Shown: positions 3,562 to 62,520 of the stretch, piece after piece
Numbering within the stretch: position 1 is the first letter of the stretch
How the letters are laid out: each line of letters starts with the position of its first letter
NCBI GenBank assembly: GCA_964372415.1
Contig: CAYJQH010000002.1
Span: 21,803 to 85,802 of the forward strand
Reading direction: 5' to 3'
Source: an uncultured Gammaproteobacteria bacterium
GTDB taxonomy: Bacteria; Patescibacteriota; Patescibacteriia; UBA9934
Length of the DNA: 64,000 nt
The notes under the pieces: generated by a model
Database searches by the model: none
Told to the model about the DNA's origin: nothing
What the model saw: only the letters and a program-made list of their open reading frames with translations
Position numbers and translations under genes: made by a program

Positions 3562-4383
3562 TTACTCTTCGAGGCAGAATGTCTGCTGTGATAAATAGGT
3601 GTTTTGGGCACCTCCTACCTTCTCTTCTGGAGCTTCATAGACGTTCGTCTCTACACAGTTACGATCGAGCCATCGAAGGTTATATGCGGTACCAGTTCCG
3701 CCGAGATCAGCTATCGCACCATAAAATACCTCGTCCGTCTCACCGATGACTTCGGTTTCGCCACTCAACAAGTCCAACACGACAAGCTGATTTCCGGTTT
3801 CAGAAACTGCTGCGTCCATATCATACGGAACAAAAGCGAGTTTAGTCTGGTCGGGAGAAACCTCAAAAGCATCCATAATGACGTATGAATCTTGAGCGAA
3901 ATCTACTAATTTCTGGTCTCCTTCAGTATTCAAGTTGAGTTCATGAAGTTGTAGAAACGGGTTATCGCCTTCTCCTACAAGATGGACAAAAACGCGCCCG
4001 TCGTAGCCCACCTGAGGAACTGCGACGACTTCAACAAAACCACCTATACCTGTTTCGAACACGGTGGTTTCACGACCGGTTTGACGATTGATGATTAAAA
4101 GTTGTTGACCGTATGGATAGCCACCTTCAAGCTTTTTGGTGTAAAGAAGTGGCGCTAACATTGGAGCCTCTTCACGTTGCTCTTGAAATTTAGCAATAGC
4201 TTGGCTTTGGGTTTTTTGGAGATTGGAGTATTGAACAATCACGTAACCAAGGGCGAGTGTCTCGAGGGCAAGAAGAAAAGCCAGGAGAGCCGTGACGATC
4301 GGGTGAATTCCCGAACGGTCAACGTGAATAGATGACGGTTGTTCAATCTCGACTGGCGTCGGTTTCATTTCCGGGTTGTCCAT
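3562..4383 (-). CDS. Hypothetical membrane-anchored protein
   Basis: ORF with one TM helix and a soluble domain of unknown function. The ORF track starts at a GTG at 4410, but an ATG at 4383 (MDNPEMKPT) lies just downstream of repeat element E1, so I prefer it. Confidence 0.5.
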   Translation of the reverse strand: MDNPEMKPTPVEIEQPSSIHVDRSGIHPIVTALLAFLLALETLALGYVIVQYSNLQKTQSQAIAKFQEQREEAPMLAPLLYTKKLEGGYPYGQQLLIINRQTGRETTVFETGIGGFVEVVAVPQVGYDGRVFVHLVGEGDNPFLQLHELNLNTEGDQKLVDFAQDSYVIMDAFEVSPDQTKLAFVPYDMDAAVSETGNQLVVLDLLSGETEVIGETDEVFYGAIADLGGTGTAYNLRWLDRNCVETNVYEAPEEKVGGAQNTYLSQQTFCLEE

Positions 4384-4404
4384 AATCTGTTTACTAACCT
4401 TAAA

Positions 4405-4492
4405 GCCCACTCTGAGAGACAGCGAAGAGTTAGGTTGGTTCGGCGAAAAAATTTCGTCTTACGACCTAACCCCTCACTTTAGTTCGGGGTGG
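4405..4492. repeat. Copy 1 of the 'E' intergenic repeat (…CGAAGAGTTAGGTTGG…CCTAACCCCTCACTTTAGTTCGGGGTGG)
   Basis: Near-identical 28-nt core shared with 8961-9033, and a related copy at 46055-46130. In all three loci it sits between two minus-strand genes, immediately 5' of the downstream gene's start. Confidence 0.7.
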
Positions 4493-4532: not shown

Positions 4533-5978
4533 TTATGTTACACGTTTCTTCAAAAAGCGAATCGCTTGGTCACGAGTCGTGACCTTACCGTGGTCACGAG
4601 CTTCCTCTAGCATACGTTGCAACTCCCCCACTTTGGGCCCAGGTTCAAGTCCTAGAAGATCGATAATCTCGCCGCCCGTGAGGAGTGGGGTTTTTATGGA
4701 TTCGAGAAGGCTATTTTGAGCGACAGCTTGACGCATGACCTCACCGGGAAGGTACGGAGCGGTTGTCGCATCCTTAACTCCCCGACCACGAACGTCGGCC
4801 TCGGTGACTTTCAAATATACCTCGAATGACGTTTCGCCGAGTCGACGGAGCAGTCGACGCACTGCATACACGTAAGATTCGTCATTCAAGTGACCGAGTT
4901 GGAGTTCGCGATACAACATTGAAGGCTTAAGATGATCTTTAACGATTCTTACCACGGAATCCTCGATCTCCCGACCAAAAGTAAACTTTTTAAGCAAACT
5001 CCGCGTCGGCTTCTCGCCTGCCTCCTCGTGGCCACGCGAACGTATTCGACCATCAATAATTGCTGTCGTTGTTGCCTTGCCTAGGTCATGACACAAGGCG
5101 CCTAACATTACCGTGAGCTGGTCTTCGAGGGTCAACTGACGATCCAAAATTAGCTTTGCGGCCTGATCGATAACCATCAGGCTATGAGTCCAAACGTCCC
5201 CCTCGGGGTGCCATTCAGGTTCCTGGTCTGTAGTCTTTAGAACAAACAGTTCTGGATAATATTTTTCGATAATCCCCAAAGCCCACATCAAACGAAAACC
5301 CACCGAAGGTAGCGTGGCTTTCAACAAAAGCTTACGCCATTCGTCGCTCACTCGTTCTTTAGGTAATTCGTTTAGGTCACCACGTTCGATCATTTGTGTC
5401 ATGAGTGCGAATGTCTTGTCTTCAAGGGTAAAGCCGAGGCGAGCCGCAAGTTGAATACCGCGAAAAACCCGTAAGGGATCTTCCTGAAAAGTCGCCGTGT
5501 CAACAACTTGCAAAACTTTTGCTTCAAGGTGAACCTGACCCTGATAAGGGTCATGAAGAACTTCCGTTAGAGGATCAAGACTTATGGCATTGACCGTGAA
5601 GTCCCGCCGGCGAGCCGCCTCACGAAACGACATTTCGGGCGCGCTCTCGGTGACAAAGCCCCTGTGTCCCTTGCCAACTTTAGACTCTCGGCGCGGCGTG
5701 CCGATGTCTATTTCGTATTCATCTGAATACACTTTCAGAATCCCAAATGACGAACCAACAAGATCAACTCGCGGGAACATTTCTTTCACAACCGAGTGAA
5801 GCTTGTCGGGGTGAACGCCGTAAACTTCGAGGTCAATGTCTTTTACTTCTTTACCGAGCAGTCGATCGCGCACATAGCCGCCAACCAAAAGCGCCCGCGG
5901 AGTCACGGGTGCATAAGTAGCATCTGGCTCAAGCTCGGCGATGCGTTTGGCAAACTCGAGAATTGCTTTGGGAAACAT
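4533..5978 (-). CDS. cca: CCA-adding tRNA nucleotidyltransferase (class II, with HD domain)
   Basis: GGYVRDRLLG polymerase-beta head motif, then an HD domain (HDLGK); 481 aa. Confidence 0.85.
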   Translation of the reverse strand: MFPKAILEFAKRIAELEPDATYAPVTPRALLVGGYVRDRLLGKEVKDIDLEVYGVHPDKLHSVVKEMFPRVDLVGSSFGILKVYSDEYEIDIGTPRRESKVGKGHRGFVTESAPEMSFREAARRRDFTVNAISLDPLTEVLHDPYQGQVHLEAKVLQVVDTATFQEDPLRVFRGIQLAARLGFTLEDKTFALMTQMIERGDLNELPKERVSDEWRKLLLKATLPSVGFRLMWALGIIEKYYPELFVLKTTDQEPEWHPEGDVWTHSLMVIDQAAKLILDRQLTLEDQLTVMLGALCHDLGKATTTAIIDGRIRSRGHEEAGEKPTRSLLKKFTFGREIEDSVVRIVKDHLKPSMLYRELQLGHLNDESYVYAVRRLLRRLGETSFEVYLKVTEADVRGRGVKDATTAPYLPGEVMRQAVAQNSLLESIKTPLLTGGEIIDLLGLEPGPKVGELQRMLEEARDHGKVTTRDQAIRFLKKRVT

Positions 5979-6114
5979 GGGCTAGTAAGAATAAACCATA
6001 TTCGTCATTGCGAAGGAGGTATTTATTTCCGACTGAAGCAATCTTTGGTTTACAGATTGCTTCGTCCCGCTCATATTCATTCGGGGTCCGCGCAAAGACG
6101 GAAATATGCAGTCA

Positions 6115-12192: not shown

Positions 12193-14724
12193 TTACTTTT
12201 TGGCACGTCCCACATAGGAACGCAAATATTTACCAGTGTGACTTAATGGTTTACGCGCAATATCTTCTGGGGTACCCGCAGCGACCACAGTGCCACCTTT
12301 GTCGCCTCCTTCGGGGCCCATATCTATAACCCAGTCAGCAGTTTTGATGACGTCCAGGTTGTGCTCAATCACCACCATCGTGTTTCCTTTGTCCACCAAT
12401 CGGTGAAGAACTTCAAGGAGCTGCCTGACATCGTCGAAGTGCAGACCGGTCGTCGGTTCATCGAGAAGGTAAAGCGTTTTACCTGTCTGTCGTCGTGCGA
12501 GTTCGGTGGCGAGCTTCACTCGCTGCGCCTCGCCGCCCGAGAGCGTAGTCGCCGACTGGCCAAGAGTGATGTACGACAAACCAACCTCATTTAAGGCTCT
12601 GAGCTTATTGTGAATGTCAGATATATCTTTAAAAAACTGCTCGGCGATTTCGACCGTCATGCTGAGCACATCCGAGATGTTTTTTTCTTTATAGGTGACC
12701 TCAAGTGTTTCCCGATTAAAACGTTTCCCTTTGCACACTTCACAAACCACATACACCGTGGGCAGAAAGTGCATCTCAATCTCAATCACGCCGTGGCCTT
12801 CGCAGTGATCGCAACGACCACCCGGCACGTTAAAACTAAAACGACCCGATTTATAACCGCGGAAGCGCGCTTCCTCGGTGGCAGCAAATAATTCACGAAT
12901 TGGCCCCCAAGCACCAGTGTAGGTAGCGGGATTGGAGCGTGGCGTGCGACCGATGGCTGATTGATCAATAAGAATAGCTTTATCGATGTATTCAATGCCT
13001 AAAACTGCTTTATTTTTCCCTGGCTCGTCCCTTCCGCCATAAAGTTTCTTGGCTATCGACTTGTACATCACATCGTAGGCCAGGGTAGATTTGCCAGAAC
13101 CGGAGACACCGGTGACGCAAATAAATTTACGGAGCGGAAAGTCGACATCAACATTTTTGAGATTATTTTCGTGAGCCCCACGAACTTTAATCGCTCCGGC
13201 ATCCTTAGCGCGACGCTCTCGGGGAACAGGAATAGCCTCATCACCTCGTAAATAGGCTGCGGTTCGTGATTTTTTATTCTTAAAAATATCGGGCGTGCTG
13301 CCGGAACATACCACTTCTCCGCCATGAACTCCTGCCCCGGGCCCAATTTCTACCAAGTAATCTGAACGGCGAATCGTGTCTTCATCATGTTCAACCACAA
13401 GTACGGTGTTCCCGAGATCACGAAGATCCTCGAGCGTCTTAATCAGACGTTCGTTGTCGCGTTGATGTAAGCCAATGGTTGGCTCGTCGAGGACGTACAT
13501 GGCGCCTACTAAGCGCGAGCCGATTTGTGAAGCGAGTCGGATACGCTGCGCTTCACCTCCGGAAAGCGTACCGGCCGTTCGATTGAGCGTCAGGTAATGC
13601 AAACCGACATCCAACATAAAACCTAGCCGATTCGAGATTTCTTTAAAGATGCTCGTGGCAATCTCTTGTTGACGATCGGTTAGGCGTAGCTCAAGTAAAA
13701 AATTGATCGCCTCGTCGACTGACATAGCGGTCAGGTCAACAATCGATTTGCCACCTATAAATACATGCAAGGCTTCTTTGCGGAGTCGTGCTCCAAGACA
13801 GACTCCACACAATTCATCGGAGAACAATTCACGGGTGCCAAGGCCTGAACATTCCGAACAAGCGCCGTAAGGGCTATTGAAGGAAAAAAGTCGCGGCTCG
13901 ATTTCCGGAAATGAAAAACCATCAACTGGGCAACTAAATTTAGCCGACAAGTAACGTTCGGCGCCGTCGGGCATAAGCACGAGTGCCAGATCTTGGCCAC
14001 GATCGATGGCCTGCTCAAGGGCATCGGCTAGTCGCTGTCGAGATTCTTTAGTCGGCGAGGTCAACATGGCAGTCGGAATAGTATCGATGACGAGCTGAAT
14101 GTCGTGCGCTTTATAACGCGACAGCTCAATGCGCTCATTCAGACGGAACATCTTGCCATCAATCCGAACTTTGGCAAAACCGGCATTGTAAAGATCGTAC
14201 AACATTTGGTAGTATTCACCCTTTCGTCCGCGAACAATAGGCGCAAGAATCGAGATCTCGGTGGGCTTTTGGGAAACCTCGGACTTTGCTTTCAATTCTT
14301 TAATAACAATATCGACCATCTCATCGACAGTGAGTTTTTCGATCTTTCGGCCGCACTCTGGACAATGAGGTTCGCCAATACGCGCGTAGAGCACGCGTAG
14401 GTAGTCGTAAATTTCGGTAATCGTGGCGATTGTAGAACGAGGATTTCGGGAATGTGCCTTTTGATCGATAGAAATAGCTGGCGACAGACCCTCGATTTCA
14501 TCAACGTCAGGCTTTTGCATATTGCCCAAAAATTGTCGGGCGTAGGCCGACAAAGACTCGACGTATCGGCGCTGACCTTCGGCAAAAATGGTATCAAATG
14601 CCAACGAGGACTTCCCCGATCCAGAAAGCCCGGTGATACACACCAGTTTGTTGCGCGGCAATTCAAGCGAAATGTTCTTTAAGTTATGTTCGCGAGCACC
14701 TTTGATGATGATCTTGTCTTGCAT
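12193..14724 (-). CDS. uvrA: Excinuclease ABC subunit A (UvrA)
   Basis: 843 aa with two ABC ATPase modules ([20 protein letters not shown]) and zinc-finger Cys clusters. The N-terminus [20 protein letters not shown] is diagnostic. Confidence 0.9.
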
Positions 14725-14760
14725 ATATATTTTCAGTATTGTGCGGGTTGGAGGTATTTA

Positions 14761-15201
14761 ATGTCTTCCGAAAAACCAGAAGTGAGGCAAGCCGGTTGCG
14801 GCGGTCTGGGCTCGGCTGAAGGCGGTTTGCCGCGCGTCGATCCGAGACACGGACACGATCCGGGCGATGAGGACCCGACTGTCGATAAACCTATTTTCGA
14901 AGACCCAACGGTGCTCAATGATCTGCCACGCGACGCTTCGACCAACCGCGTCGGCCCACCGATCTATGAGCTGCCAACTGAGGCAGGACGCACCACCTGG
15001 GGCTGGGATCAACAGACTCGCTCTCCAGCCGAGATCACCGCGGCCATGTTTCTCCTCACCACGATGGGGCGTCTCCCCTATCGAGACATTCTTCTCCTTG
15101 CCGATCAGTGTGTAGGCGCGAACCTGAACAGCTTGTCGGACGAGGATCGTCAACTGTTCTTCGAGCGCCTGGCAGCGCTCAAGAGCCGCTACCAGAGTTA
15201 A
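14761..15201 (+). CDS. GC-rich small hypothetical protein (146 aa, Pro/Asp-rich) inserted between uvrA and uvrB
   Basis: ATG at 14761 preceded by GGAGG at -12. Codon usage is strongly GC-biased relative to the flanking genes. It exactly fills the uvrB-uvrA intergenic gap in the opposite orientation, and its 3' end overlaps the uvrB stop by 23 nt. Confidence 0.5.
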
Positions 15202-17248
15202 TCGGCAACTCCTTGCTGCGACGCCTCGCTTGTTTCTTAGCAGGCGTTTTTTGTTTACCTGAAAGTTCTTTTTCGAGCAGGGCTATCTCGTCACGCAGAA
15301 TTGCCGCTGTTTCGAAAAGCAAGTTGGCGGCTGCGGCTTTCATTTCGACCTTTTTCTCATTTATTACTTCTTCTAGCTCCTTAGGACTTGCCGTGAGTTC
15401 GATCTGAAGAATTTGCTTAGTTTTATCTTCGCTCACCTCGCCGAGCATGGCTCTGATATCAGAAATCTTTTTATTAATACTCTTTGGCGTAATGCCATGT
15501 TCTTTGTTGTACGCGAGCTGAAGTACCCGACGGCGCTTGGTTTCGTTTAGTGCTCGTTCTAGTGAACCGGTTTGATGATCCGCATAAAGCACCACGAGAC
15601 CGTTAACGTTGCGTGCGGCACGACCAATAGTTTGCACGAGCGATGTTTCGGATCGAAGAAAGCCCTCTTTATCGGCGTCTAGAATACCAATAAGCGAGAC
15701 CTCCGGCAGGTCTAATCCTTCACGAAGTAAGTTAACTCCGACCAGGACATCATATGCGCCACGTCGCAAATCAGAGAGAATCGTAATGCGTTCCAGGGTT
15801 TCGATATCAGAGTGTAAATAAGCGACTTTTATTCCCTCATCCTTCAGATACTGCGCCAAATCTTCAGCCATTTTTTTAGTCAGAGTCGTAATTAGTGCGC
15901 GTTCTCCTTGATCAACTCGCTCCCGGATTCGCTTGATGATGTCTTTTACCTGACCGGGGTGATCGCCACTAGGAATAACTGGCAGGACAAGTGTTTGTGG
16001 GTCAACCAGTCCGGTAGGGCGGACAATTTGCTCGACGACCTGTTCCGAAATCTGTCGTTCGTAGGGTCCCGGGGTGGCTGACACCATCACCATCTGATTA
16101 ACTTGGCCAATAAATTCATCAAAAGTTAGCGGTCGATTGTCTTTAGCTGAGGGCAACCGGAATCCGTGCTCAATTAGCGTTTGTTTACGGGCTTGATCAC
16201 CAGCATACATACCCCCGATTTGCGGCAAGGTGACGTGTGACTCGTCGACTATTGTCAAAAAGCCATCCGGAAAGTATGACAATAAAGTTGATGGCGGCTG
16301 ACCCGGCGATCGGCCATCGAAGTGTCGCGAATAATTTTCAATGCCACTGCAGTAACCAAGATTACGAATCATTTCTATGTCGTATCTTGTGCGACGCGAT
16401 AATCGTTCGTATTCAAGAACCTTGCCCTGGGTATCAAACTCTTTTAGACGGGCTCCCAGTTCGGATTCAATATCCTTAAGAGCCCGCTCGCGTTCCCCGG
16501 GTGCGCTCATGAAGTGTTTGGCCGGAAAAAGCCAAACGTCTTCTGGTTGGTCTTTGATCTCGCGGGTTACCGGGTCGAGGCGAAAGATTTGTCGTACCTT
16601 CTCACCTTCAAGAACGATGCGATAAATCACCTCTTCATTGACCGGCATGACCTCGATAACGTCACCGCGAGCGCGGAACTGACCGCGTGTCAGATCACTT
16701 GTTGTGCGAGTGAATTGCATCTCGACCAGTCGCCGCATGATCTCCTCGCGAGCCTGTTGCTGCTGAGCGGTCACCCGCAGCACAACCGCTTGATACTCCT
16801 CAGGCGAGCCCAAACCGTAAATGCAAGACACCGAGGCCACGATAATGACATCCTTACGAGTTAGCAGCGCTTGCGTGGCTGCGTGCCGAAGGCGATCGAT
16901 CTCGTCGTTGATCGTGGCTTCTTTTTCGATATACGTGTCAGTTCGTGGCAAGTAGGCCTCTGGCTGATAGTAGTCGTAGTACGAAACGAAGTATTCGACG
17001 ACGTTATCGGGAAAAAATTCGCGAAACTCGTTACACAGTTGAGCAGCTAGAGTTTTGTTGTGCGCTATAACGAGCGTTGGCTTTTGGATCTGCTGAATCA
17101 CGTTGGCCATCGTAAAAGTTTTGCCTGAGCCAGTTACGCCAAGCAATGTTTGGCGCGACAAACCCTCACGAAGTCCGTTCGTGAGTTGCTCGATCGCTTT
17201 AGGCTGATCACCAGCCGGCTGATACTCGGAATTTAACTTGAATTGCAT
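15179..17248 (-). CDS. uvrB: Excinuclease ABC subunit B (UvrB), with a ~24-aa basic C-terminal extension
   Basis: [11 protein letters not shown]alker A, helicase motifs, and the UvrC-binding helix (…[12 protein letters not shown]…). The tail …[19 protein letters not shown] extends past the usual terminus. Confidence 0.9.
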
Positions 17249-17359
17249 AACTACAGAGATGCCTCACTTTCGTTTGGCATAAAATCAGCAAATGCCCCAA
17301 GAGCGGAGGCTCTAGGGGTATGTTCGTATTTTGTACGGTTACAATAACATGCCTAATTA

Positions 17360-17863
17360 TCACTGTCGAGAAGTATCCACACCTCCGCCAAGACTTTTTT
17401 TCTCAATCACGTCAAGGGTTCCAGCCGGCACCTTACTTCGCCATGCTTTATTGCCACTTGCAATCAACTGACGAATTTCCGCGCCAACAATGCCTGGCAC
17501 TGGCACCACTTTTTTCGTGGCGATATTTTTCTTTTCGAAAATTGATCGTACCGCTTCGTTGCCACTCCAAATCACCGGCTCGGTTGGGTTATTAGCAGCA
17601 TCGAGCACATGGACTGCCCAATCTTCATCAGCTGGCGCGTCCTTAACAACGGCAATAGTTGCGTCCGGCAGATTGGCCGCCAACAGGGCGCCAGAAATCA
17701 TTTCGCGACGTTGTTCTAGTGTGAAAGGGTCTTCGTTACCGTTCTTGACCCCATCGCAAATAACCACGACAACGCTATCAGACAATTTTGCCATGCCTTG
17801 GACAACCATCAGGTGTCCGTTATGAAATGGCTGAAATCGACCAGGGAAAATAAGCGTGGACAT
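17360..17863 (-). CDS. Archaeal-type nicotinamide-nucleotide adenylyltransferase (NadM-like cytidylyltransferase fold)
   Basis: GRFQPFHNGH (HxGH) motif at the N-terminus; 167 aa. Confidence 0.7.
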   Translation of the reverse strand: MSTLIFPGRFQPFHNGHLMVVQGMAKLSDSVVVVICDGVKNGNEDPFTLEQRREMISGALLAANLPDATIAVVKDAPADEDWAVHVLDAANNPTEPVIWSGNEAVRSIFEKKNIATKKVVPVPGIVGAEIRQLIASGNKAWRSKVPAGTLDVIEKKSLGGGVDTSRQ

Positions 17864-17866
17864 AAG

Positions 17867-18787
17867 CTAGTCTGTCATTAGTCGCTCTTTGGTCATAACC
17901 GGGAGCGCAAATTTTCGAGTCAGCTGAGTTAAAAGAAGCGGCGGAACATCAATCTTGGACATGTCATTTGTCCCTGTGCCGCGCCCCGACAAGGCCTCAA
18001 GATAACCAATGTCATGAGGATCAAAACCCATGAGCGTGGCCGCTACGGCATCGGCGGCAACTGGATCAGTACTCGCCAACACTACTCCCATTGAGACCGG
18101 CGTGCCATCAACTGGGCCATCACCTTCCATGCCCAGGATACCATCAATAACTACCAAATCGCAGGGTAAATGTTTAAAAAGCTGAGCAATGAGCTCATTG
18201 GCTGCTGCCAGTCCATAAGCGTTGAGCCAGGGAGCCCGAGACCAAACCCGTCCCTGAATACCTACCCGTGAGGGCACAATCATCGTTGCCTCAGACCACG
18301 AACTGATAGCGAGTGACGCCCCATAAACATGATGGGTCTTAAGAGGCGCGACGGCAATTCGTAAATCACAATCACGCACCAATCGTGGCCGACGAACCGC
18401 GACAGTTCGACCTTCAACCAGATATGATTCCTCGTAAATATCTTCGTCGTTCAAGTCGACGAGTGAAAGATTGACGTACTGCGTGATTAAGCCTTCATAG
18501 CCAAAATTTCTAAAACTAGCCTTAGTGCCGTAATGCGCCCCGTCGGCGATCACAATAGGAACATCGGTATATACCCGAATCTGATCCAAGACTCCCCGTA
18601 CCGCGTCAACGTGGGTTGAGGCAAGTTGCAGTTCATGATGCGTTAGGTTGGGCTGAATTAGAATCTGCTTGGCGGATCTAAAACGAGCCACAGCCTCATT
18701 GCCAAGCTCATCGATTGCCTGGCGCACAGCTTTTCGACGATGTTCGTTCTGGATCAAGGCAACCTTCTGCATAGCTGGCCTGAGCAT
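17867..18787 (-). CDS. DUF362 domain protein
   Basis: 306 aa with the GILGMEGDGPVDG motif characteristic of DUF362. Confidence 0.5.
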   Translation of the reverse strand: MLRPAMQKVALIQNEHRRKAVRQAIDELGNEAVARFRSAKQILIQPNLTHHELQLASTHVDAVRGVLDQIRVYTDVPIVIADGAHYGTKASFRNFGYEGLITQYVNLSLVDLNDEDIYEESYLVEGRTVAVRRPRLVRDCDLRIAVAPLKTHHVYGASLAISSWSEATMIVPSRVGIQGRVWSRAPWLNAYGLAAANELIAQLFKHLPCDLVVIDGILGMEGDGPVDGTPVSMGVVLASTDPVAADAVAATLMGFDPHDIGYLEALSGRGTGTNDMSKIDVPPLLLTQLTRKFALPVMTKERLMTD

Positions 18788-18815
18788 ACACAGGCTACCT
18801 TAGAGAGGCAATGAG

Positions 18816-20051
18816 TTATTCGTAACGCAAAGCTTCAATTGGACTTTTCCGGGAAGCGCGTAGCGCTGGGTAAAGCCCAAAAACAATACCAGTAATAGCC
18901 GCTACGACAAGCGCTGCCCCGGCGGCTGAAGAGGGAAAAATATAAGTCCACTCCATATTGATTATTGAGCTTAAAATCTTCGATGCCAAAAACGACAATC
19001 CTGATCCGAAAATTATCCCTATTAGGCCGCCAAGAGTTGTGAGTAATAAAGCTTCAAAAAGAAACTGCAAAAGAATGTCTCTGTTTCTGGCTCCGAGTGC
19101 TTTACGCAAGCCTATCTCTTTGGTCCGTTCAGTGACAGCCACCAGCATAATATTCATAATGCCAATACCACCGACTACGAGAGAAATCGCCGCAATCGCC
19201 GAAAGAAAAACGGTCAAAATGTTGGTTACGCTAGCTACTTGTTTGGCTGCATCAGCTTGGGAAGTAACATGAAAATCGTCGTTTATAGGATCGTCAATAG
19301 AATGTTCCCGACGGAGGGTGCTTAGAATTTCCTCCTTAGCGAGCGGTACAGCTTCTTCACTTATGGCCTGAGTAATAATCATGTTGTAGTGATCAATGTC
19401 CACCATATCCTGAGCGGTGGTGTAAGGGATGAGCACCATGAAATCGACTTCGAAGAGACCAAAAAAACCCTTCTTATCAAACGTGCCAATAACTTCAAAT
19501 TCTTCGTTCTGTATCTCAATCGTCTGCCCAACTGGATCTTGGTTCGGGAATAATTCCTGACGCACCTCAAACCCAAGTACCGCAACTTTACGCTTAGAAG
19601 AGACATCTTCCTCCCTTAGCAAGCGACCGGTGGAGAGTGAGACACCAAAAACCGAGGCAAAATTTTCCGTTGAACCGGTAGTACTCGCTTCGGCCGAAAA
19701 CTTGTCAATCATCACCCGGCCAGGAACAAAAACAACAGGGGCTAAATCAACCAAATTTGGTGCGTTTGCTTTATCACTCAACACCTCAAGATCACTGTTT
19801 TTAAGAGAATTAGACAAAAGGGACACAAGATCAGAAGGCGTTTCGGGCATCGGTCCTGGCTCAATAATAATCGTGCCGAGGCCAAGCCCTTGAATTTGAC
19901 CCAAAATCAAATTCTCGGCCCCCTGCCCCACGGACTGGATGAGGGTGATTGAGGTCACGCCAATAACAATGCCAAGAATCGTGAGCGCAGAACGCGTGGC
20001 GTGGGCCCAAAGGCCCGACAAGGCGGTCTTGAAAGCGTGAGATATTTTCAT
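18816..20051 (-). CDS. ABC transporter permease, MacB/FtsX-like
   Basis: N-terminal TM helix, large periplasmic domain, and a C-terminal FtsX-like 3-TM module; 411 aa. Confidence 0.8.
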   Translation of the reverse strand: MKISHAFKTALSGLWAHATRSALTILGIVIGVTSITLIQSVGQGAENLILGQIQGLGLGTIIIEPGPMPETPSDLVSLLSNSLKNSDLEVLSDKANAPNLVDLAPVVFVPGRVMIDKFSAEASTTGSTENFASVFGVSLSTGRLLREEDVSSKRKVAVLGFEVRQELFPNQDPVGQTIEIQNEEFEVIGTFDKKGFFGLFEVDFMVLIPYTTAQDMVDIDHYNMIITQAISEEAVPLAKEEILSTLRREHSIDDPINDDFHVTSQADAAKQVASVTNILTVFLSAIAAISLVVGGIGIMNIMLVAVTERTKEIGLRKALGARNRDILLQFLFEALLLTTLGGLIGIIFGSGLSFLASKILSSIINMEWTYIFPSSAAGAALVVAAITGIVFGLYPALRASRKSPIEALRYE

Positions 20052-20929
20052 AATGAGTCACGGCTATCGCTTGCTATTTGTCCGTCTTTAATTCGAATCG
20101 TCCTTTTGGCCTGGCTTGCCGTCCAAGCATCGTGAGTGATAACAATAATGGTTCGACCTTTGGCGTGAAGATCATTTAAGGTTTCCATAACCGTCTGTCC
20201 AGAGACAGAGTCAAGATTTCCCGTTGGTTCATCGGCAAAAATGACCGCAGGATTATTAACTATCGACCTCGCAATCGCCACGCGTTGTTTTTCGCCTCCG
20301 GAAAGCTGGTTGGCTGTGTGGTTTAAGCGGTGCGAAAGTTGAACGGACTGAAGAGCCGTGGTGGCTAACTCGTCCCATATGCTTTTTGGCGTTTTTGAGT
20401 ACATGAGAGGGAGCTTCACGTTTTCAAGCACCGTAGCACGAGGCAAAAGATTGAAGGCTTGAAAAACAAAACCTAAACTCTCGTTACGCAAACGAGCTAA
20501 GGCATTTGGAGAAAGTTGTTCGGTATTGAGACCAGAAAAAAAATATTCACCGCTACTTGGTCGGTCAAGACAGCCAAGTAATTGCAAGAGCGTAGACTTG
20601 CCAGATCCCGATGGGCCCATGATGGCAATAAATTCTCCCTTGTTTATTGAAAGATTAACGTTCCGGAGCGCGACAGTTTGAACGCCGCCTGTTTCGTAGA
20701 CCTTACATAAATCGCGTGTTTCAATGAGAGCTTTTGCTGGCGTGACAGTGCTAGTTAAAGAAACTGTTTTGGCGCTCAAACGGGGCGTAAGGTTCTTGAA
20801 AGCATAACGAAGCTGACGCTTAGACCAACCTACACGTAACAACTCGTCGGAAATTTTTAACTCATCCAAACCCTGCTCTTGGGCGGCAATTATATAGGCC
20901 TTTAACTTTTCTATTTCTGCGGGTGTCAT
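20048..20929 (-). CDS. ABC transporter ATP-binding protein (MacB/LolD-like) with a ~75-aa N-terminal extension
   Basis: [11 protein letters not shown]alker [14 protein letters not shown] signature and a Walker B. 4-nt overlap with the permease gene. Confidence 0.85.
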
Positions 20930-21169: not shown

Positions 21170-21243
21170 TCCGGGATCGTCTAAGGGCAGGACAGCGGCC
21201 TTTGAAGCCGTGAATCTTGGTTCGAATCCAAGTCCCGGAACCA
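21170..21243 (+). tRNA. tRNA-Gln (anticodon TTG), CCA encoded
   Basis: Manual cloverleaf: acceptor TCCGGGA/TCCCGGA, anticodon loop CTTTGAA, T-arm CTTGG-TTCGAAT-CCAAG. Confidence 0.85.
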
Positions 21244-21280: not shown

Positions 21281-21417
21281 AGTTTAAGAATTTAGTATTC
21301 GAGACGAGTTTGGGTGAATGGGGAAGATTTTTCCGAAGCGTAGTTCATGCTACGGTGAGGAAAAATCGGGGCCCCATGAGGCCAAAATTGGCCGAATAAT
21401 AAATTCTCCAAAAAGAA

Positions 21418-21455
21418 GCGCCCCGGCCAGTCTGACGACTGGTCGGGGCACGTGA
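21418..21455 (-). terminator. Rho-independent terminator of the 519-aa gene
   Basis: GC hairpin CCCCGGCCAGTC…GACTGGTCGGGG, followed on the minus strand by a TTCTTTTT run. Confidence 0.6.
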
Positions 21456-21465
21456 CGGTGACCGG

Positions 21466-23025
21466 TTAGAGGTCGTCGAGATCGTTCGACATGTCCTCGA
21501 CCGGCACGGCTTCGTCTTCGACGAAGTCAACCGAGGTGGCCATGGTCCGCCGGATGGCGGTCTCCACAGCCTCGGCGATCTCCTCGTTTGAGAGCAGGGA
21601 CGGACGCTGCGGGTGCGACAGCGACCCGTTCAGCAACATGCCCGCCTCGACGAAGAAATACCAGTGCTGCGCCGGCTCCGGCAGATCTCGGCCGGCCGCC
21701 TCGCCATTATGGAAGTTGTCGATGATCCGCCGAACGTCAGACACGAGGTCAGCATGATCGATCCTGACCTCGGACCAACCGGCGCGTCGGGCCTCGGCGA
21801 GAGCGATCTCCTCGGCGATCTCCCAGATCTGCTGCTTGTTGTCATCGGACGTGAAGACGCTCACGTTGCCGCTCGATCGACGGATGACGACCACCTGAGC
21901 CTGATGCACGCTCCGAAGCCACGAGCTCATCTTTCGGAGATTCGTCTCGGCGAAGGCCACTCGCACCCCAGAAATCTGGCGCAAGAGGCCGTTATTTTCC
22001 TGGAAGGATTGTGCGCATTCCTCTTGAAACTCGCGAGCACTCGCCAAGTAGCAGTTGAAGATCTTGAAGACCTTCCGGCCAAGCTCCTCCGGGGACATCT
22101 TGCCCCAAATGTTCAAAGCCGTGACCACGGAGTCGAGCTCGAACGGCAACTGCTTGCGGTCCGGCTCGCGGTACCGCTTGAGCTCCCTTAGAAGGTAGCG
22201 CAAGAGCTTGGCCTCACGATCCTCCACCCTCTTGAAGTTGAGGCCAAAGAACTTGGCCACCTCGTCCGCCGTCGTGGACGGCGGAAAGTGTCCGCCTTCA
22301 ATATCCACGAAGATGGTTCGCGGATTCTCCAGGTACTCTCTCAGGGTTTCCGCGTCCGCGTAGACGAGCTGCGGCTCGTTCAGATACCGCCCGACGATCC
22401 AAGCCTTGGCCAATCCATTCAAGGTGGCGTAGGCCGGAACCACGATAGTCGGTCGACGGAGCTTGCGCATGGCTTCGGCCGTCATCGGCTCGGAAGCCGT
22501 AGACAGAGCGAGGGGCACAGTGAGCGGTCGCGCCATGGGCTGACAGCTCGCGCCATAAAGATGCGCATTGACCACGGCCTCGATCCAGTTGAAGACCCAC
22601 AAGTCGTCGACCTTCTGGTCCTTGCCCCACCATTCGAGCGTCTTGACCACCTCCCCCCATTCGAGGCGAGTTTGTCCGGACACTGCACCCTGGTCATCCT
22701 TGCGCGTGTCAGCGCGGCGAATTTCCGAAAGCAGCGTCTTGTACTCGGATCTGTCGAACAGTCCAAGTTCCTTGGCGGTCAGAGTGGCGGCGCACTCGCC
22801 GGGCAATCGGCCATCCAGCCGGTGCTCGTCAAACATTCCGCCACCAATGCCGATCAGGGCCACCGTGGAGTCACCAAGAAAGGTGCGCTTGGCGCGCTCC
22901 TCATCCCAGAACTCCACCGTGGCTTCAGGATTGGCCCGGCGGATGAGCGCCGCGGCCACGTGCTCGTCGGCATGTGCCCCTCGGTGGGAAACGGCCAGCC
23001 TGAGCTTGAGCGGATCGAGAGCCAT
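21466..23025 (-). CDS. GC-rich hypothetical protein with an N-terminal MYG1/UPF0160-like metal-dependent hydrolase motif and an acidic C-terminal tail
   Basis: 519 aa. N-terminal VSHRGAHADEH…IGIGGGMFDEHR resembles the HxGxFHADE…GG.YD..HH pattern of the MYG1 family. AGGAG lies 8 nt upstream of the ATG. GC content is much higher than in the neighbouring genes. Confidence 0.45.
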   Translation of the reverse strand: MALDPLKLRLAVSHRGAHADEHVAAALIRRANPEATVEFWDEERAKRTFLGDSTVALIGIGGGMFDEHRLDGRLPGECAATLTAKELGLFDRSEYKTLLSEIRRADTRKDDQGAVSGQTRLEWGEVVKTLEWWGKDQKVDDLWVFNWIEAVVNAHLYGASCQPMARPLTVPLALSTASEPMTAEAMRKLRRPTIVVPAYATLNGLAKAWIVGRYLNEPQLVYADAETLREYLENPRTIFVDIEGGHFPPSTTADEVAKFFGLNFKRVEDREAKLLRYLLRELKRYREPDRKQLPFELDSVVTALNIWGKMSPEELGRKVFKIFNCYLASAREFQEECAQSFQENNGLLRQISGVRVAFAETNLRKMSSWLRSVHQAQVVVIRRSSGNVSVFTSDDNKQQIWEIAEEIALAEARRAGWSEVRIDHADLVSDVRRIIDNFHNGEAAGRDLPEPAQHWYFFVEAGMLLNGSLSHPQRPSLLSNEEIAEAVETAIRRTMATSVDFVEDEAVPVEDMSNDLDDL

Positions 23026-23144
23026 TTTTCACTCCTACTCTTGTATGTGATGCCGGCAGATTTCCGGCGGTGAATGAACAACGTGCCCAAGCTTGACACA
23101 AAACAGACCTTTTGTCAAGGTTTTTGGCCAACATTAGATATTTT

Positions 23145-24061: not shown

Positions 24062-24904
24062 TTAACCAAGATGATAACGACCGTGTTCAGCATCAGCCAC
24101 AATCTTGCCGTCATTTAAAGTAATAACTCGCTTACGAAGCCCATTCACGATATCTCTGTCGTGAGTCACAAGAACGATAGTTGTTCCTACCTCGTGGATG
24201 CGTTTAAAGAGCTCAAGAATATCACGAGCCGTCAAGGTATCGAGGTTTCCTGTCGGCTCATCAGCTATGATGATCTTTGGCCTGTGCACCAAGGCACGGG
24301 CCACTGAGACGCGTTGTTGTTCACCACCAGAAAGCTGTCTTGGGTAACGATGCAATTTATCAGCTAAACCAACGATCTTCATGACTTGCGGCACCACCTG
24401 CCTGATACGGCTCGTTGCTGCTCCGGCAACTTCCAAAGCAAAAGCTACGTTTTCGTAAGCGGTTTTTTTGGGTAATAGTTTATAGTCCTGAAAAACCACA
24501 CCAATCTGACGACGTAAAATTGGTACTTCGTGATACCTGAGACGTGAAATATCCCAATCCCCAACCGAAATCTGCCCATGGGTTGGCTGTTCTTCCGCAA
24601 AAAGAAGTTTAGCTAAAGTTGTTTTTCCGGATCCGCTCGTACCAACAATCGACACGAACTCGCCAGGTTTAATATGAAAACTTACGCCATCCAAAGCGCG
24701 CGTGTCTGGTTGGTAGATTTTACTCACGTTTTTAAACGTAATCACTCGGGCAGTATAGCATGTACGACCGTTGACTAAAAATGAATTTTCAACTAGACTG
24801 GGGCGTCGTTTCTTGGAGGTAATGTTGGATAACGACTCAGAGATCATTCTCGTGAAAAGCAAGTTCGGAGACCGTGAGATCTCCCGGGAAAACGTGGATT
24901 CCAT
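24062..24904 (-). CDS. ftsE: Cell division ATP-binding protein FtsE
   Basis: GTSGSGKTTL…LSGGEQQRVSVAR…[11 protein letters not shown]. The first ~50 aa of the ORF are probably not translated. A GTG at 24745 (VITFKNVSKIY) is the likelier start. Confidence 0.8.
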   Translation of the reverse strand: MESTFSREISRSPNLLFTRMISESLSNITSKKRRPSLVENSFLVNGRTCYTARVITFKNVSKIYQPDTRALDGVSFHIKPGEFVSIVGTSGSGKTTLAKLLFAEEQPTHGQISVGDWDISRLRYHEVPILRRQIGVVFQDYKLLPKKTAYENVAFALEVAGAATSRIRQVVPQVMKIVGLADKLHRYPRQLSGGEQQRVSVARALVHRPKIIIADEPTGNLDTLTARDILELFKRIHEVGTTIVLVTHDRDIVNGLRKRVITLNDGKIVADAEHGRYHLG

Positions 24905-25976
24905 TCTGGATACGCGGATTTTCCGGATTGTCGGTAAGCGGGAGTGGGTGGTAAAGAGCGGTTTCTACGACCGGCCCTTCATCTGCTACAACCGCAGTCA
25001 AGATAGGCACCATGCCTACCAAAACCCGCACACCGCATTTCGAGCCACGGTTTACGCCGATGGCTTCGAGGGGTACGGCGCCGACGACATTCCGGAAGGC
25101 GACCTGCAAAAGCTCAAGGCCTGGCTCGAGCGTCACCGCTACCTGCAGCTCCTTGTGTCCGACGACATGATGCGCGGGCCGGAGCGGGCCATGTTCAACA
25201 GGCTGTGCATCGAGCTCGCGACCAAGATGGGTCGGCCGGTGAACGAGGTCAAACGCGAAATCCTGACTCAGACCATCATTGCCGCCACCCTTGAGGGTGA
25301 AGCGGCAGTCGAGAGCTTGGGCGAGACGATCGGGCTTGATCGGCGACGGATTGCAGAAATCACCGCCATCGGTCGAAACGTCAACTGGCACGGGGCCCTC
25401 ATCGTGCGTGAGATCAGAGAACAAGAAGATCTCATGACGGCCTGCGGCGCCGAGCTGAGCGCCCTTCTCGAAGCCCGTTCAACGCTCTTCGACGACGCGG
25501 CCAGACGCGAAAGTCACCTGAGGAACGTCAAAAACATCGCAACGCTCCTCGGCACGATCAAGGACCGCCCATGGCGAAGCCTGGCACAACGCGACATTCA
25601 GGACCTCGAACAGTACGTCGGCTATGGCTCAACGGGTGTCGAAGCCCTGATCCAGGCCGAACTCTTCCTCCGTCGACCGGTAGCCGCGCACAAGTGCTTC
25701 TACCTGTCGCGCCAGATCAACGTAGTGCTCTATCGGCTGGCCATGGCCGAAGCGAGACAAGGCAACATCCGCTCCGCTCTCCTTGATCGGGGCTACGCCG
25801 AACTCGTCGCCATTCGGGACTCCATCGATCCCGCGACGGGCGAAATCCTGCAGCGCAACCCGCTCTGGAGCGCCCTCGGTCGCATCAACGATGCGCTCCA
25901 TATCTGGCGTGCGAGCAGCAGCCACTTCGAGGACGTTCGCAACCTCCTCCGCCACGCCGCTGCCACGTTCGGCTAG
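24771..25976 (+). CDS. GC-rich hypothetical protein (401 aa), no recognisable domain
   Basis: Long ORF whose codon usage shifts to high GC after about 24880. Followed by a strong terminator. Its start overlaps the dubious N-terminal extension of ftsE on the other strand. Confidence 0.5.
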   Translation: MTKNEFSTRLGRRFLEVMLDNDSEIILVKSKFGDREISRENVDSILDTRIFRIVGKREWVVKSGFYDRPFICYNRSQDRHHAYQNPHTAFRATVYADGFEGYGADDIPEGDLQKLKAWLERHRYLQLLVSDDMMRGPERAMFNRLCIELATKMGRPVNEVKREILTQTIIAATLEGEAAVESLGETIGLDRRRIAEITAIGRNVNWHGALIVREIREQEDLMTACGAELSALLEARSTLFDDAARRESHLRNVKNIATLLGTIKDRPWRSLAQRDIQDLEQYVGYGSTGVEALIQAELFLRRPVAAHKCFYLSRQINVVLYRLAMAEARQGNIRSALLDRGYAELVAIRDSIDPATGEILQRNPLWSALGRINDALHIWRASSSHFEDVRNLLRHAAATFG

Positions 25977-25984
25977 GCATCTCC

Positions 25985-26017
25985 CGGCTCGGACCCCTTG
26001 GTCCGAGCTGCTTTTTA
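25985..26017 (+). terminator. Rho-independent terminator of the 401-aa gene
   Basis: GCTCGGACC-CCTT-GGTCCGAGC followed by TGCTTTTT. Confidence 0.7.
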
Positions 26018-26034
26018 TGTTCGACCTCCCCTCA

Positions 26035-26100
26035 CCCCTCCTTCTTAAGGAGGGGACTGCTCACTGTTTCACCCTTTATAAGGGGGAATGAAGGGGGTCG
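26035..26100. repeat. GC-rich palindromic hairpin element (CCCCTCCTTCTTAAGGAGGGG … CCCTTTATAAGGG … GGGGGAATGAAGGGGG)
   Basis: A near-identical CCCCCTCCATTTATGGAGGGGG…GGGGGTTGGGGGAGG element is found at 62405-62440. Both lie just beyond the terminator of a GC-rich gene. Confidence 0.6.
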
Positions 26101-26107
26101 AACACAA

Positions 26108-26135
26108 AAAGCACATGCCTTCTGGCACGTGCTTT
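26108..26135. terminator. Bidirectional terminator hairpin (GCACATGCC-TTCT-GGCACGTGC, A-run on one side, T-run on the other)
   Basis: Serves the plus-strand 401-aa gene region and the minus-strand tRNA-Thr. Confidence 0.6.
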
Positions 26136-26211
26136 TGGAGCCACTTCCGGGATTTGAACCCGGGACCTCTGCTTTACGAAAGCATTGCTCTACCGCTGAG
26201 CTAAAGTGGCC
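26136..26211 (-). tRNA. tRNA-Thr (anticodon CGT), CCA encoded
   Basis: Reverse complement is GGCCACTTTAGCTCAGCGGTAGAGC…TTCGTAA…GGTCCCGGGTTCAAATCCCGGAAGTGGCTCCA. Confidence 0.85.
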
Positions 26212-26369: not shown

Positions 26370-26444
26370 TGGAGCAGGAGACGGGACTCGAACCCGCGAC
26401 CCTTTGCTTGGGAAGCAAATGTTCTACCACTGAACTACTCCTGC
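26370..26444 (-). tRNA. tRNA-Gly (anticodon CCC), CCA encoded
   Basis: Reverse complement is GCAGGAGTAGTTCAGTGGTAGAAC…TTCCCAA…GGGTCGCGGGTTCGAGTCCCGTCTCCTGCTCCA. Confidence 0.85.
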
Positions 26445-26593
26445 GTTTTAAGCGCAAAATATATAGCACGATTTTACTATCCAGTCTAGACTAAGTCTCG
26501 GGTTTCTGCTAACCTTTAGCCGCATCGTGATCCCCATGATGCATCAAGCCAACCCTTTCCACTACAGCGCTCCCCGCGCTGAGCGGAGAGTCC

Positions 26594-27124
26594 ATGATCC
26601 TCGAAACCAGGGCGGTAATCCCCCGCCTTTCGCTCCAGTCGCGACTCCCCCGTGCAGCCAGCATCATCCGCCCCAAGCTGACCGATGATGGCAATCTGAT
26701 CTTGATCCTCAACCCCGAGGGTCTGATCCGCATCCATCTCCGCCGTGAGAACGTCGACAATCAGGCTCTCTACGAATGCCTGGTGGTCGACGAAGAAGGC
26801 CGGCCCCTCGAGCTCTTCTTCGGACGCGGCATCTGCGACGCACTCCTCAACGCCTGTGCCCACCTCGTGGAACACGGCGCCGTCATCCTCCCCGTGAGCG
26901 ACGAAGTGCGCGGCAAGTACATCTCGAACGAACGGCATCACAAGTCGGTCCGCCTGAACTTCGACGACACGAAGGACCTGTCCGTCATCGAGGTGATCCG
27001 GCTCCGACTCAACACCTACGAGGTCAAGATCTTCGACGAGCCGCTCCCGGGATTCTTCTCGAACCCCGTGCTCGGCGTCATCGGGGGCCTGTATTACCTC
27101 AAGGCGAAGGGCTACCTCATGTAG
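26594..27124 (+). CDS. GC-rich hypothetical protein (176 aa)
   Basis: ATG preceded by GGAGAG. GC-rich codon usage. Followed by a nested GC hairpin and T-run terminator. The antisense ORF (26516..27169) has an Asp/Glu/Gly/Val-rich composition typical of an artefact. Confidence 0.5.
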   Translation: MILETRAVIPRLSLQSRLPRAASIIRPKLTDDGNLILILNPEGLIRIHLRRENVDNQALYECLVVDEEGRPLELFFGRGICDALLNACAHLVEHGAVILPVSDEVRGKYISNERHHKSVRLNFDDTKDLSVIEVIRLRLNTYEVKIFDEPLPGFFSNPVLGVIGGLYYLKAKGYLM

Positions 27125-27140
27125 CGCCGACTCGTTCCCC

Positions 27141-27190
27141 TCCCGCACTCCCTGGCTCCCCCGAGCCATGGCGTGCGGGAATCTTTTTTT
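27141..27190 (+). terminator. Rho-independent terminator (CCCGCAC…GGCTCCCCCGAGCC…GTGCGGG followed by TCTTTTTTT)
   Basis: Read directly from the sequence. Confidence 0.65.
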
Positions 27191-28040
27191 ACCACACTAA
27201 AACTAGCGGTGGATTAGCTTGTCTTCTTGTGGCAATGATCTCTCCCAAGGTTAATTTTTTAACCGCGATTCCTCTAAACCTTACATACTCTTCACCGTTT
27301 ATTTTTTCTCGGCTAAGTAACTCAACAACCCAGTAAGCTTCTGGTCCACTCAAAATTTCTGAGTGTTCGCTAATCTGAAGAGTGAGCGCCGGCCTTAACC
27401 AGTGCGGCACCTCGCTCACCTTCATGAGCCCTAGATCACCTTTATTTTTAGCTGAAATGTCCTCAGAAAAATACTCCGCCACATCCCTAAACGGCATGCC
27501 GTCATCAATTTTTTTCATGATCTCCTCAAGAGTATTTTTAGCTGCCTCCTGACCAGCATCACCCAAGGCTACCGCCTGTTCCACGCCTTGCGACAAGAGA
27601 AGCGGCGCCACCACAAACTGACGGTAATCGTCTACAGTCCAACCAGCCTGACTAAGTCCTGAAGCAATTAGCTCCTCATTAACTTCATAATGAGCTATAG
27701 CTTCACGGTTAGTAATCACTCCAAGTTCATTGGCTAATTGCTCAATATACAAACGGTGAACACCACTTTTTAAACCTTCGTCGAAAGCTTCTTCGCCTTG
27801 TGCCTGGCCAAATGCTTCTGCCGCTCGAGCAAGTTCTAGGATGGTGCTATAAGATAAAGTTTTTTGGGACGAAGCTTCACCAGCCTTAATAAAAACTGCT
27901 GGCGCAATTACGCCTCTAGCAAAAAGGCGCGCCGGGCCGTGCGTAAAATGAAAAATAAAAAAAGAATAATTAAAAATTGCATAAACAAAAATTACGCTCA
28001 ACAGAAAAAAACCTGCAGGGCGTAATCTCGCGAACTTCAT
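27189..28040 (-). CDS. Membrane-anchored parvulin-type peptidyl-prolyl cis-trans isomerase (PrsA/SurA-like)
   Basis: N-terminal TM helix and a PpiC-type rotamase domain (…FSEDISAKNKGDLGLM…GPEAYWVVELL). Confidence 0.65.
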   Translation of the reverse strand: MKFARLRPAGFFLLSVIFVYAIFNYSFFIFHFTHGPARLFARGVIAPAVFIKAGEASSQKTLSYSTILELARAAEAFGQAQGEEAFDEGLKSGVHRLYIEQLANELGVITNREAIAHYEVNEELIASGLSQAGWTVDDYRQFVVAPLLLSQGVEQAVALGDAGQEAAKNTLEEIMKKIDDGMPFRDVAEYFSEDISAKNKGDLGLMKVSEVPHWLRPALTLQISEHSEILSGPEAYWVVELLSREKINGEEYVRFRGIAVKKLTLGEIIATRRQANPPLVLVW

Positions 28041-62362: not shown

Positions 62363-62404
62363 ACGCCAAGTATGGTAAGTGATGCAGACTAAAAGTGCAA
62401 TGCT

Positions 62405-62476
62405 CCCCCTCCATTTATGGAGGGGGTTGGGGGAGGTTAAAACCAAACACCCCGGCCCTTGCGAGCACGGGGTGTT
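62405..62476 (-). terminator. GC hairpin element (CCCCCTCCATTTATGGAGGGGG) plus a rho-independent terminator (ACACCCCG…CGGGGTGT, then a T-run on the minus strand)
   Basis: Lies just 3' of the GC-rich surface-protein gene. The first hairpin is a near-copy of the one at 26035. Confidence 0.6.
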
Positions 62477-62520
62477 TGTTGCTCCCGGAGCTTGCGCCCC
62501 GAGTCAGGTAACCGCCGTCA

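Follow-up and report, generated by a model that had tools for sequence, protein, structure and literature searches.

What kind of protein a strikingly GC-rich gene encodes, and how the gene came to its present site, are the questions raised by a 64,000-nucleotide stretch of contig CAYJQH010000002.1 (positions 21,803 to 85,802 of the forward strand; GenBank assembly GCA_964372415.1), referred to below in its entirety as the window. The open reading frame (ORF) in question runs from an ATG to a stop codon exactly at positions 21466-23025 of the window, on the minus strand, and predicts a protein of 519 amino acids (aa). An earlier note, made from the sequence, had read its N-terminus as that of a MYG1/UPF0160-like metal-dependent hydrolase fused to a long unknown region, and had suggested that the gene is foreign and possibly controlled through an upstream palindrome. 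The answer reached here is that the protein is the long form of a family that forms a new, unnamed branch of the DHH superfamily, and that in this long form a catalytic-type domain and a dead copy of it lie in tandem in a single chain.

The 519-aa ORF is a real gene and not a chance reading frame, because a family profile detects 847 relatives at E ≤ 1e-3 and the translated product is modelled by AlphaFold2 with a mean predicted local distance difference test (pLDDT) score of 93.6. Stop codons are scarce in GC-rich DNA, and long ORFs are also open on the opposite strand of the same segment (22288-23073, plus strand, 261 aa; 21613-22191, plus strand, 192 aa), which is what would be expected if the frame were open merely through that scarcity. 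However, hundreds of homologues with conserved motifs, a high-confidence fold and a correctly placed ribosome binding site (RBS) and terminator make the chance of this negligible, and a spurious ORF was ruled out on the strength of the relatives and the model. The description of a 519-aa GC-rich ORF was exact (GC content 61.4%; 78.3% at third codon positions, GC3), and the N-terminal strings AVSHRGAHADEHVAAALI and IGIGGGMFDEHR, as well as the acidic C-terminus, are found in the translation.

Searches with the query alone against Pfam, NCBIfam, PHROGs, PADLOC and PDB sequences returned nothing meaningful, and a PDB profile search using 150 family members gave no match. A word-indexed protein search recovered only the query and two relatives at 41% identity, and no more than three proteins were recovered with a 100-sequence profile. 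The family became visible when 1.84 billion cluster representatives were searched exhaustively with a profile, which gave 847 proteins at E ≤ 1e-3, of which 368 were at E ≤ 1e-10; relatives are counted here as cluster representatives, amounting to approximately 850 clusters at 50% identity. Named members are all annotated as "hypothetical protein" and come from metagenome-assembled genomes (MAGs) of Patescibacteria (Uhrbacteria, Paceibacterota, Vogelbacteria and "Patescibacteria group"). When the five closest long forms were used as queries, two loci were found in reference genomes and none in JGI metagenomes or in viral contigs.

The domain layout was mapped onto the profile from the best 151 of the 847 relatives. 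Among these, approximately 20 are long relatives (470-570 aa) that are collinear with the query, and most of the others are only 310-360 aa in length and give two abutting matches, to profile positions ∼15-115 and ∼306-504, skipping positions ∼116-305. The short forms cover residues ∼5-110 and ∼300-500 of the query, which places its additional ∼190 residues inside the chain. On these alignments, the query is a ∼330-aa two-domain protein that carries ∼190 residues between its domains. The long C-terminal region of some 300 residues described in the earlier note therefore has to be redrawn: the C-terminal ∼200 residues are the ordinary second domain of the family, and what is additional is an internal dead duplicate of the N-terminal domain (N-domain).

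The N-terminal catalytic-type domain (residues ∼5-160; 22546-23013, minus strand, as are all of the features of the protein given below) was delimited by conservation, hhalign and Foldseek, and is DHH-like and remotely MYG1-like. Across 100-150 diverse members, the positions conserved in at least 90% of sequences in this domain are H14, H18, D20, G59, G61, D66, E67, H68, C78, L82, A84 and D106, and those in the C-terminal domain (C-domain) are G386, E411, W455, N466, G467 and S468; the query retains every one of them. Two motifs noticed earlier in the sequence, H-x3-H-x-D-E and GGG-x-F-D-E-H, prove to be the near-invariant core of the family. The first, H14-R-G-A-H18-A-D20-E21 (22963-22986), is the predicted metal-binding motif I, in which H14, H18 and D20 are at least 90% conserved in 150 members, and the second, G59-I-G-G-G-M-F-D66-E67-H68 (22822-22851), is the counterpart (DEH) of the DHH motif and contains positions conserved to the same degree.

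The ∼190-residue insert missing from the short forms consists of a helical linker (residues ∼108-184) and a degenerate N-domain copy (residues ∼185-300; 22126-22473). Residues 5-110 and 185-300 of 18 long forms were aligned to each other by hhalign with a probability (Prob) of 98.3% and an E of 1.2e-14, so the duplication itself is secure. In copy 2, H14 is replaced by P197, H18 by T201, D20 by N203 and D66-E67-H68 by P248-P249-S250, and every compared conserved ligand position has been lost. The contrast between ligand positions that are at least 90% conserved in copy 1 and freely replaced in copy 2 is, within the protein itself, the strongest reason for regarding copy 1 as functional. The arrangement is not uniform in the family. 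P0024, and probably P0026, carries the degenerate copy ahead of the intact N-domain, P0021 has a partial extra N-domain, and the N-terminus of P0035 fits the degenerate-copy part of the profile better.

The C-terminal alpha/beta domain (residues ∼301-500; 21526-22125) is common to short and long forms and, from its conservation and the Foldseek matches, is proposed to be a DHHA1-like substrate-binding domain. It carries G386, E411, W455 and the N466-G467-S468 motif (21613-21630, a span that also takes in H471). The acidic C-terminal tail (residues ∼501-519; 21469-21525) is present as had been described, and is predicted to be disordered, with a mean pLDDT of 53 and 46 in the last two 10-residue blocks. 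Tails vary in length and acidity in relatives P0002 and P0004, and P0003 has none.

The AlphaFold model, made from an alignment of 100 sequences, has a predicted template modelling score of 0.91 in addition to the high mean pLDDT, and only the last ∼19 residues are disordered. An earlier model from 3 sequences (pLDDT 66) gave the same class of Foldseek matches. Against the PDB, the top match was the pGpG phosphodiesterase PggH [7d62] (E 6e-4, prob 0.99), and other leading matches were an archaeal phosphatase of adenosine 3′,5′-bisphosphate (pAp) [8a8k], NrN [9lqa] and an uncharacterised protein from Helicobacter pylori [6mtz]. Cdc45 chains, family II pyrophosphatases and PPX1 were also matched. 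The named proteins among the leading matches are all, we take it, members of the DHH superfamily. Alignments to two-domain DHH/DHHA1 enzymes cover 339-386 columns, and the leading matches among the predicted viral structures of BFVD are almost all annotated as DHH or related phosphohydrolases. The 519-aa protein thus has a two-domain fold of the DHH/DHHA1 type, and by fold it very probably belongs to the DHH phosphoesterase superfamily.

MYG1 is itself reported to be a DHH-motif enzyme, a 3′-5′ RNA exonuclease as shown experimentally and modelled on RecJ, and the catalytic D-H-H triad of the human protein is formed by residues 106-108 (PMC6582341). The note's assignment could mean that the query is a true MYG1/UPF0160 orthologue, and hence a 3′-5′ RNA exonuclease, which has been extended at its C-terminus. 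The likeness is genuine at the level of motifs and N-domain profiles. When 80 short forms were compared with 14 MYG1 sequences using hhalign, the whole proteins matched with Prob 73% and E 3e-5 over 146 N-domain columns, and the N-domains alone with Prob 90.5% and E 1.4e-6; controls with swapped domains and reversed sequences gave E values of 0.05-0.19 and Prob of no more than 1.1%. TH..PHxDE of the family is aligned with THNGTFHCDE of MYG1, and GGGxFDEH with GG...YDHH, and the short forms are near MYG1 in length. However, PF03690 (MYG1/UPF0160), which is carried by all of the MYG1 proteins retrieved as a positive control, matched neither the query (E ≤ 10) nor any of 100 family members (E ≤ 1), and at the Pfam level this check, which the earlier note had itself proposed, refutes the assignment. 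The homology is limited to ∼60-150 columns of the N-domain and the C-domains go unmatched (E 0.13), D66-E67-H68 stands opposite the D-H-H triad and at least 90% of family members keep DEH, motif I is spaced more tightly by one residue, and the extra residues are internal. An orthologue of MYG1 is therefore most unlikely. Judged from these comparisons, the resemblance is one of remote homology within the DHH superfamily, and the protein is not a member of the MYG1 family; the motifs and the N-domain match survive at superfamily level, and the proposed membership and architecture do not.

The interpretation preferred here is that the protein is an enzyme of the DHH phosphoesterase superfamily that combines three modules in one chain, and this is considered probable, though with reserve. 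Several observations weigh against it. The Foldseek E values are modest (∼1e-3 to 1e-4) and the template modelling (TM) scores are low (0.15-0.31), for which the insert and the orientation of the domains may be responsible. The protein goes unrecognised by curated profiles: the query has no match to Pfam DHH (PF01368) or DHHA1 (PF02272), DHH matched a single one of 100 members (E 0.056), and DHHA1 is not among the matches listed, which cover 25 of 57 families. The C-domain does not match that of MYG1 significantly (E 0.13, Prob 0.5%); in this weak alignment, LLNGSxT falls opposite FIGG(H/N)xT of MYG1, whose C-domain carries a GFIGGH loop in the region of His344. The canonical motifs are altered, with DEH in place of DHH, a motif II lacking its Asp and NGS in place of GGGH. 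According to Aravind and Koonin (1998), the superfamily is said to be defined by motifs I-IV (DXD, D, DHH and D) and by GGGH of DHHA1; in the query, H14/H18/D20/E21, D66/E67/H68, D106 and N466/G467/S468 occupy analogous positions, but the residues differ and the Asp of motif II is not conserved. The catalytic-type domain also includes the near-invariant C78 (22792-22794) in an E-C-A-A-T-L motif, and we know of no such Cys as a feature of known DHH enzymes. Finally, 39 short-form loci revealed no general operon partner that would point to a substrate.

Some of these features would also fit a non-catalytic scaffold or sensor that keeps a DHH-like fold as Cdc45 does, or a relative of the ChrB C-terminal domain. 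Cdc45 chains are among the fold matches, the DHH and GGGH motifs are altered, and one copy of the domain is demonstrably degenerate already. In addition, ChrB_C (PF09828) was the sole Pfam model matched repeatedly, in 18 of 100 members with a best E of 6.9e-6, over N-domain residues ∼12-160. P0032 and P0066 are among the matching members. Two individual ChrB_C matches score 20.1 and 21.9 bits and thus remain below the gathering score of 25 bits, and the query has no ChrB_C match. The recurrent matches raise the possibility of a distant relationship between ChrB_C and the DHH-like domain of the family. A purely structural or sensory role is nevertheless improbable, as copy 1 keeps its His, Asp and Glu positions at 90% conservation or more across 150 diverse sequences and their equivalents in copy 2 have been freely replaced, a pattern that is expected under selection on catalysis or metal binding.

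For the three-module enzyme, the following division of labour is proposed. Module 1 (residues ∼5-160) would be the catalytic domain, in which H14, H18, D20, E21, D66, E67, H68 and D106 may hold one or two divalent metal ions, and the metal would activate a water molecule to attack a phosphoester. Module 2 (residues ∼185-300), the copy without ligands, could serve as a built-in structural partner, the mate in a pseudo-dimer. Module 3 (residues ∼301-500), with W455 and the NGS-x-S/T-H loop, would, by analogy with DHHA1 domains, bind substrate and cap the active site. The likeliest substrates would be small nucleotide phosphoesters, such as RNAs of 2-5 nt, pAp, linear or cyclic dinucleotides, or RNA 3′ ends, because the nearest structures and MYG1 act as the analogy for short RNA and small nucleotide phosphoesters. 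That the predicted enzyme has phosphoesterase activity is slightly favoured, and the choice of any particular substrate from this list is doubtful.

The gene is located between ftsE-ftsX upstream and a tRNA-Gln gene on the opposite strand. Its own Shine-Dalgarno sequence, AGGAG, which had been noted earlier, was seen at 23032-23036 (minus strand), 6 nt ahead of the ATG. An intrinsic terminator (21409-21451, minus strand), identified by RNA folding, begins 15 nt past the stop codon and consists of a 14-bp G+C-rich hairpin followed by CUUCUUUUU. Hairpin and U-tract together fold with −35.7 kcal/mol (z = −4.8), and none of 200 shuffled sequences folded equally well. With an RBS and a strong terminator, and a promoter-like element described below, the gene looks like a self-contained transcription unit downstream of ftsEX. 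No Rfam match to a riboswitch or leader was found in the 5′ region of the gene.

The palindrome that had been put forward as a possible operator exists as an imperfect inverted repeat with 13-nt arms, of which 11 of 13 positions are complementary, and an 8-nt gap (23089-23122, spanning 64-97 nt upstream of the start codon). A repeat of this quality is uncommon in the immediate context, as only 15 of 2000 shuffled versions of the 119-nt spacer contained an equal one. However, 29 such sites occur across the window, and the orthologous spacers between ftsX and the gene do not preserve the second arm. The conserved half contains TTGACA (23113-23118, minus strand), a −35-like hexamer. In the corresponding spacers of the related loci L004 and L006, TTGACG is followed 17 nt on by TAATAT or TAATGT, which reads as a textbook sigma-70-type promoter; at the −10 position of the window itself, CAAGCT after TGT is weak. 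Since the TTGACA half alone is conserved in the orthologues, the upstream element reads as the promoter of the gene rather than as an operator, and the operator was dropped as an explanation for a repeat that is ordinary in the window.

The oddest feature of the gene is its composition, which forms a separate small puzzle about the persistence of foreign or fast-evolving genes. Its GC content and GC3 compare with means of 48.7% and 48.2% in the window (standard deviations 3.5 and 6.4; 46 ORFs), corresponding to z values of about +3.6 and +4.6, and the GC-rich segment at 21301-23100 essentially coincides with the gene and adjoins tRNA-Gln. Related loci show the same tendency. The L006 orthologue has a GC3 of 87% compared with 45-53% in those of its neighbours that are not GC-rich, and in L005, a Patescibacteria contig of 45% GC, the gene for a distant long form has a GC3 of 71% compared with 30-43% in its neighbours. 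Over 25 low- and mid-GC loci, the family gene tops the GC3 ranking of the local ORFs in 14, and in 20 it holds one of the first two places. Within a clade of 63-66% GC, the GC3 of the family gene does not stand out.

Such figures could point to a recently acquired foreign gene, inserted beside tRNA-Gln and controlled by a repressor that binds the upstream palindrome, as had been suggested. Apart from the composition and the adjoining tRNA-Gln, this would be in keeping with other GC-rich segments that lack Pfam families and flank tRNA genes, one of which (26501-27200) is missing from L006, and with the GC3 rank of the family gene in other loci. However, the same site is occupied in related genomes. 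In L006 the order is tRNA-Thr and tRNA-Gly, an unknown gene, ftsE, ftsX, the family gene and tRNA-Gln, as in the window, and the ftsE-ftsX-gene portion of this order is seen in L004 and L007. Between L006 and the window, identity is 74-85% for FtsE, FtsX and two Mur ligases and only 44% for the family protein. Given that the locus is shared by L004, L006 and L007, any acquisition predates the split or has recurred at the same site. The contig of P0003 also retains the DUF362, CTP_transf and uvrB neighbours, no integrase was found, and searches for the gene in phage records (tblastn), viral contigs and PADLOC defence models gave no match. With the regulatory part weakened by the unconserved second arm, the −35-like conserved half and the 29 comparable repeats, a recent, repressor-controlled acquisition is unlikely: the composition is indeed strongly atypical, but a simple recent transfer does not explain a gene that is syntenic, long-diverged and still GC3-rich. 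The GC3 excess could come from recurrent replacement at this locus, from biased gene conversion or from selection acting on composition.

L004 is a 5.2-kb MAG contig [CAZXUX010000054.1] that is labelled "uncultured Gammaproteobacteria" and shares the ftsE-ftsX-gene order of the window. Its gene compositions and lengths agree with those of L006, and the Gammaproteobacteria label is probably a binning error.

Five gene-sized segments of at least 56% GC (400-bp windows) are present in the window, which has an overall GC content of 48.9%: 14701-15300, 21301-23100, 24801-26200, 26501-27200 and 62401-63100. The ORFs tested in these segments have no Pfam family, and three of the segments adjoin tRNA genes. 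An unknown gene of ∼380-400 aa at 24771-25976 (plus strand), divergent from ftsE, has a GC content of 59.5% and a GC3 of 73.9%, and its product is 35% identical to that of its L006 counterpart (4868-5989, minus strand); it behaves like the 519-aa gene. The GC-rich segment of ∼650 bp at 26501-27200 lies between a gene with a peptidyl-prolyl isomerase (PPIase) domain (27189-28040) and tRNA-Gly and has no counterpart in L006, where the PPIase-domain homologue abuts tRNA-Thr (L006 4328-4361). The minus-strand ORF in this segment (26516-27169) has an implausible translation rich in D, E, V and G, and a real gene here, if any, may be on the plus strand. The tRNA genes are tRNA-Gln (window 21170-21243; L006 10067-10140), tRNA-Thr (26136-26210; 4361-4436) and tRNA-Gly (26370-26444; 4713-4786). 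Comparison of the window with L006 shows one in-place inversion of tRNA-Gln and another of the tRNA-Thr/tRNA-Gly pair, with order and strand flipped relative to the collinear protein genes, which suggests local rearrangement at tRNA-proximal sites that also bear GC-rich genes.

Gene neighbourhoods differ between branches of the family. The ftsEX linkage is limited to close relatives of the window. Genes for a metF (methylenetetrahydrofolate reductase) and a metH (B12-dependent methionine synthase) lie 1-2 genes upstream of the short form in 11 loci (L021, L031, L035, L039, L042, L043, L051, L052, L059, L060 and L064), all from the single narrow clade of 63-66% GC, whose members are 76-95% identical. 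The long form in L005 lies between folD and glyA (L005 6361-7221 and 9115-10398). These two independent contexts give a weak hint of a link to one-carbon metabolism and are not taken as evidence. An S1-domain protein, FtsH and a class-V aminotransferase were each found in 3-4 short-form loci. Downstream of the 519-aa gene, window 15179-20929 contains uvrB, a cytidylyltransferase-like gene, a DUF362 gene and a MacB/FtsX-type ABC transporter pair; the first three of these likewise neighbour the relative P0003 on its contig.

If the three-module enzyme is correct, the family would represent an unrecognised branch of the DHH superfamily that comprises ∼850 clusters at 50% identity and has no Pfam, NCBIfam or PDB entry, and its long form would offer a clean natural example in which a catalytic domain has been duplicated in tandem, with one copy live and the other dead. 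The named members come from candidate-phyla bacteria with reduced genomes, and the enzymes of RNA and nucleotide turnover in these bacteria are, to our knowledge, poorly mapped. In these lineages uncharacterised families are nothing unusual, and the finding would be no major surprise to a specialist. A more speculative proposal, offered with little confidence, is that the family is a Patescibacteria-type stand-in for the known nanoRNases or dinucleotide phosphodiesterases, that the long form joins a live and a dead catalytic domain in one chain as a pseudo-heterodimer, and that its persistently GC3-rich, fast-diverging but syntenic genes arise by recurrent allele replacement or biased conversion at a locus under conflict-type selection, for example on the turnover of nucleotide signals in interactions with phages or a host.

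Among known systems, MYG1 shares with the family an N-terminal beta-strand that ends in T/S-H, a following helix that opens with H-x-D-E, a GG-containing strand that precedes an acidic-His motif, a later conserved Asp, and, for the short forms, a length of ∼330 aa. It differs in having H-x4-H where the family has H-x3-H, DHH where the family has DEH, and ∼10 residues between GG and D-x-H where the family has 2; the Asp of VDVGG in MYG1 is missing from the family, and the query contains an inserted dead duplicate. ChrB_C is a single domain of ∼130 residues, unlike the multi-module query.

Closer in fold are the stand-alone DHH/DHHA1 phosphoesterases, namely NrnA-type nanoRNases, pAp phosphatases, PggH, NrN and Rv2837c/CnpB, which provide the closest structures in the PDB [7d62, 8a8k, 9lqa, 6mtz and 5jju] and in BFVD. 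The query resembles these in its two-domain alpha/beta layout with a long connecting helix, in the conserved His and Asp residues of the first domain, and in a Gly-containing loop near the C-terminus of the second. Its motif I is H..H.DE rather than DXD, its motif III is DEH, its C-terminal loop is NGS rather than GGGH, and the family has no meaningful match to the Pfam DHH or DHHA1 profiles. The stand-alone enzymes are usually homodimers, whereas in the long form the one chain also supplies a pseudo-second catalytic domain. For this second domain, Cdc45 and other inactive RecJ-like proteins provide a precedent, in that a DHH-fold domain without catalytic residues has been kept in a structural role. 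In Cdc45, however, the entire protein is inactive and belongs to a helicase complex, whereas in the query the dead copy stands beside an apparently intact one in the same chain.

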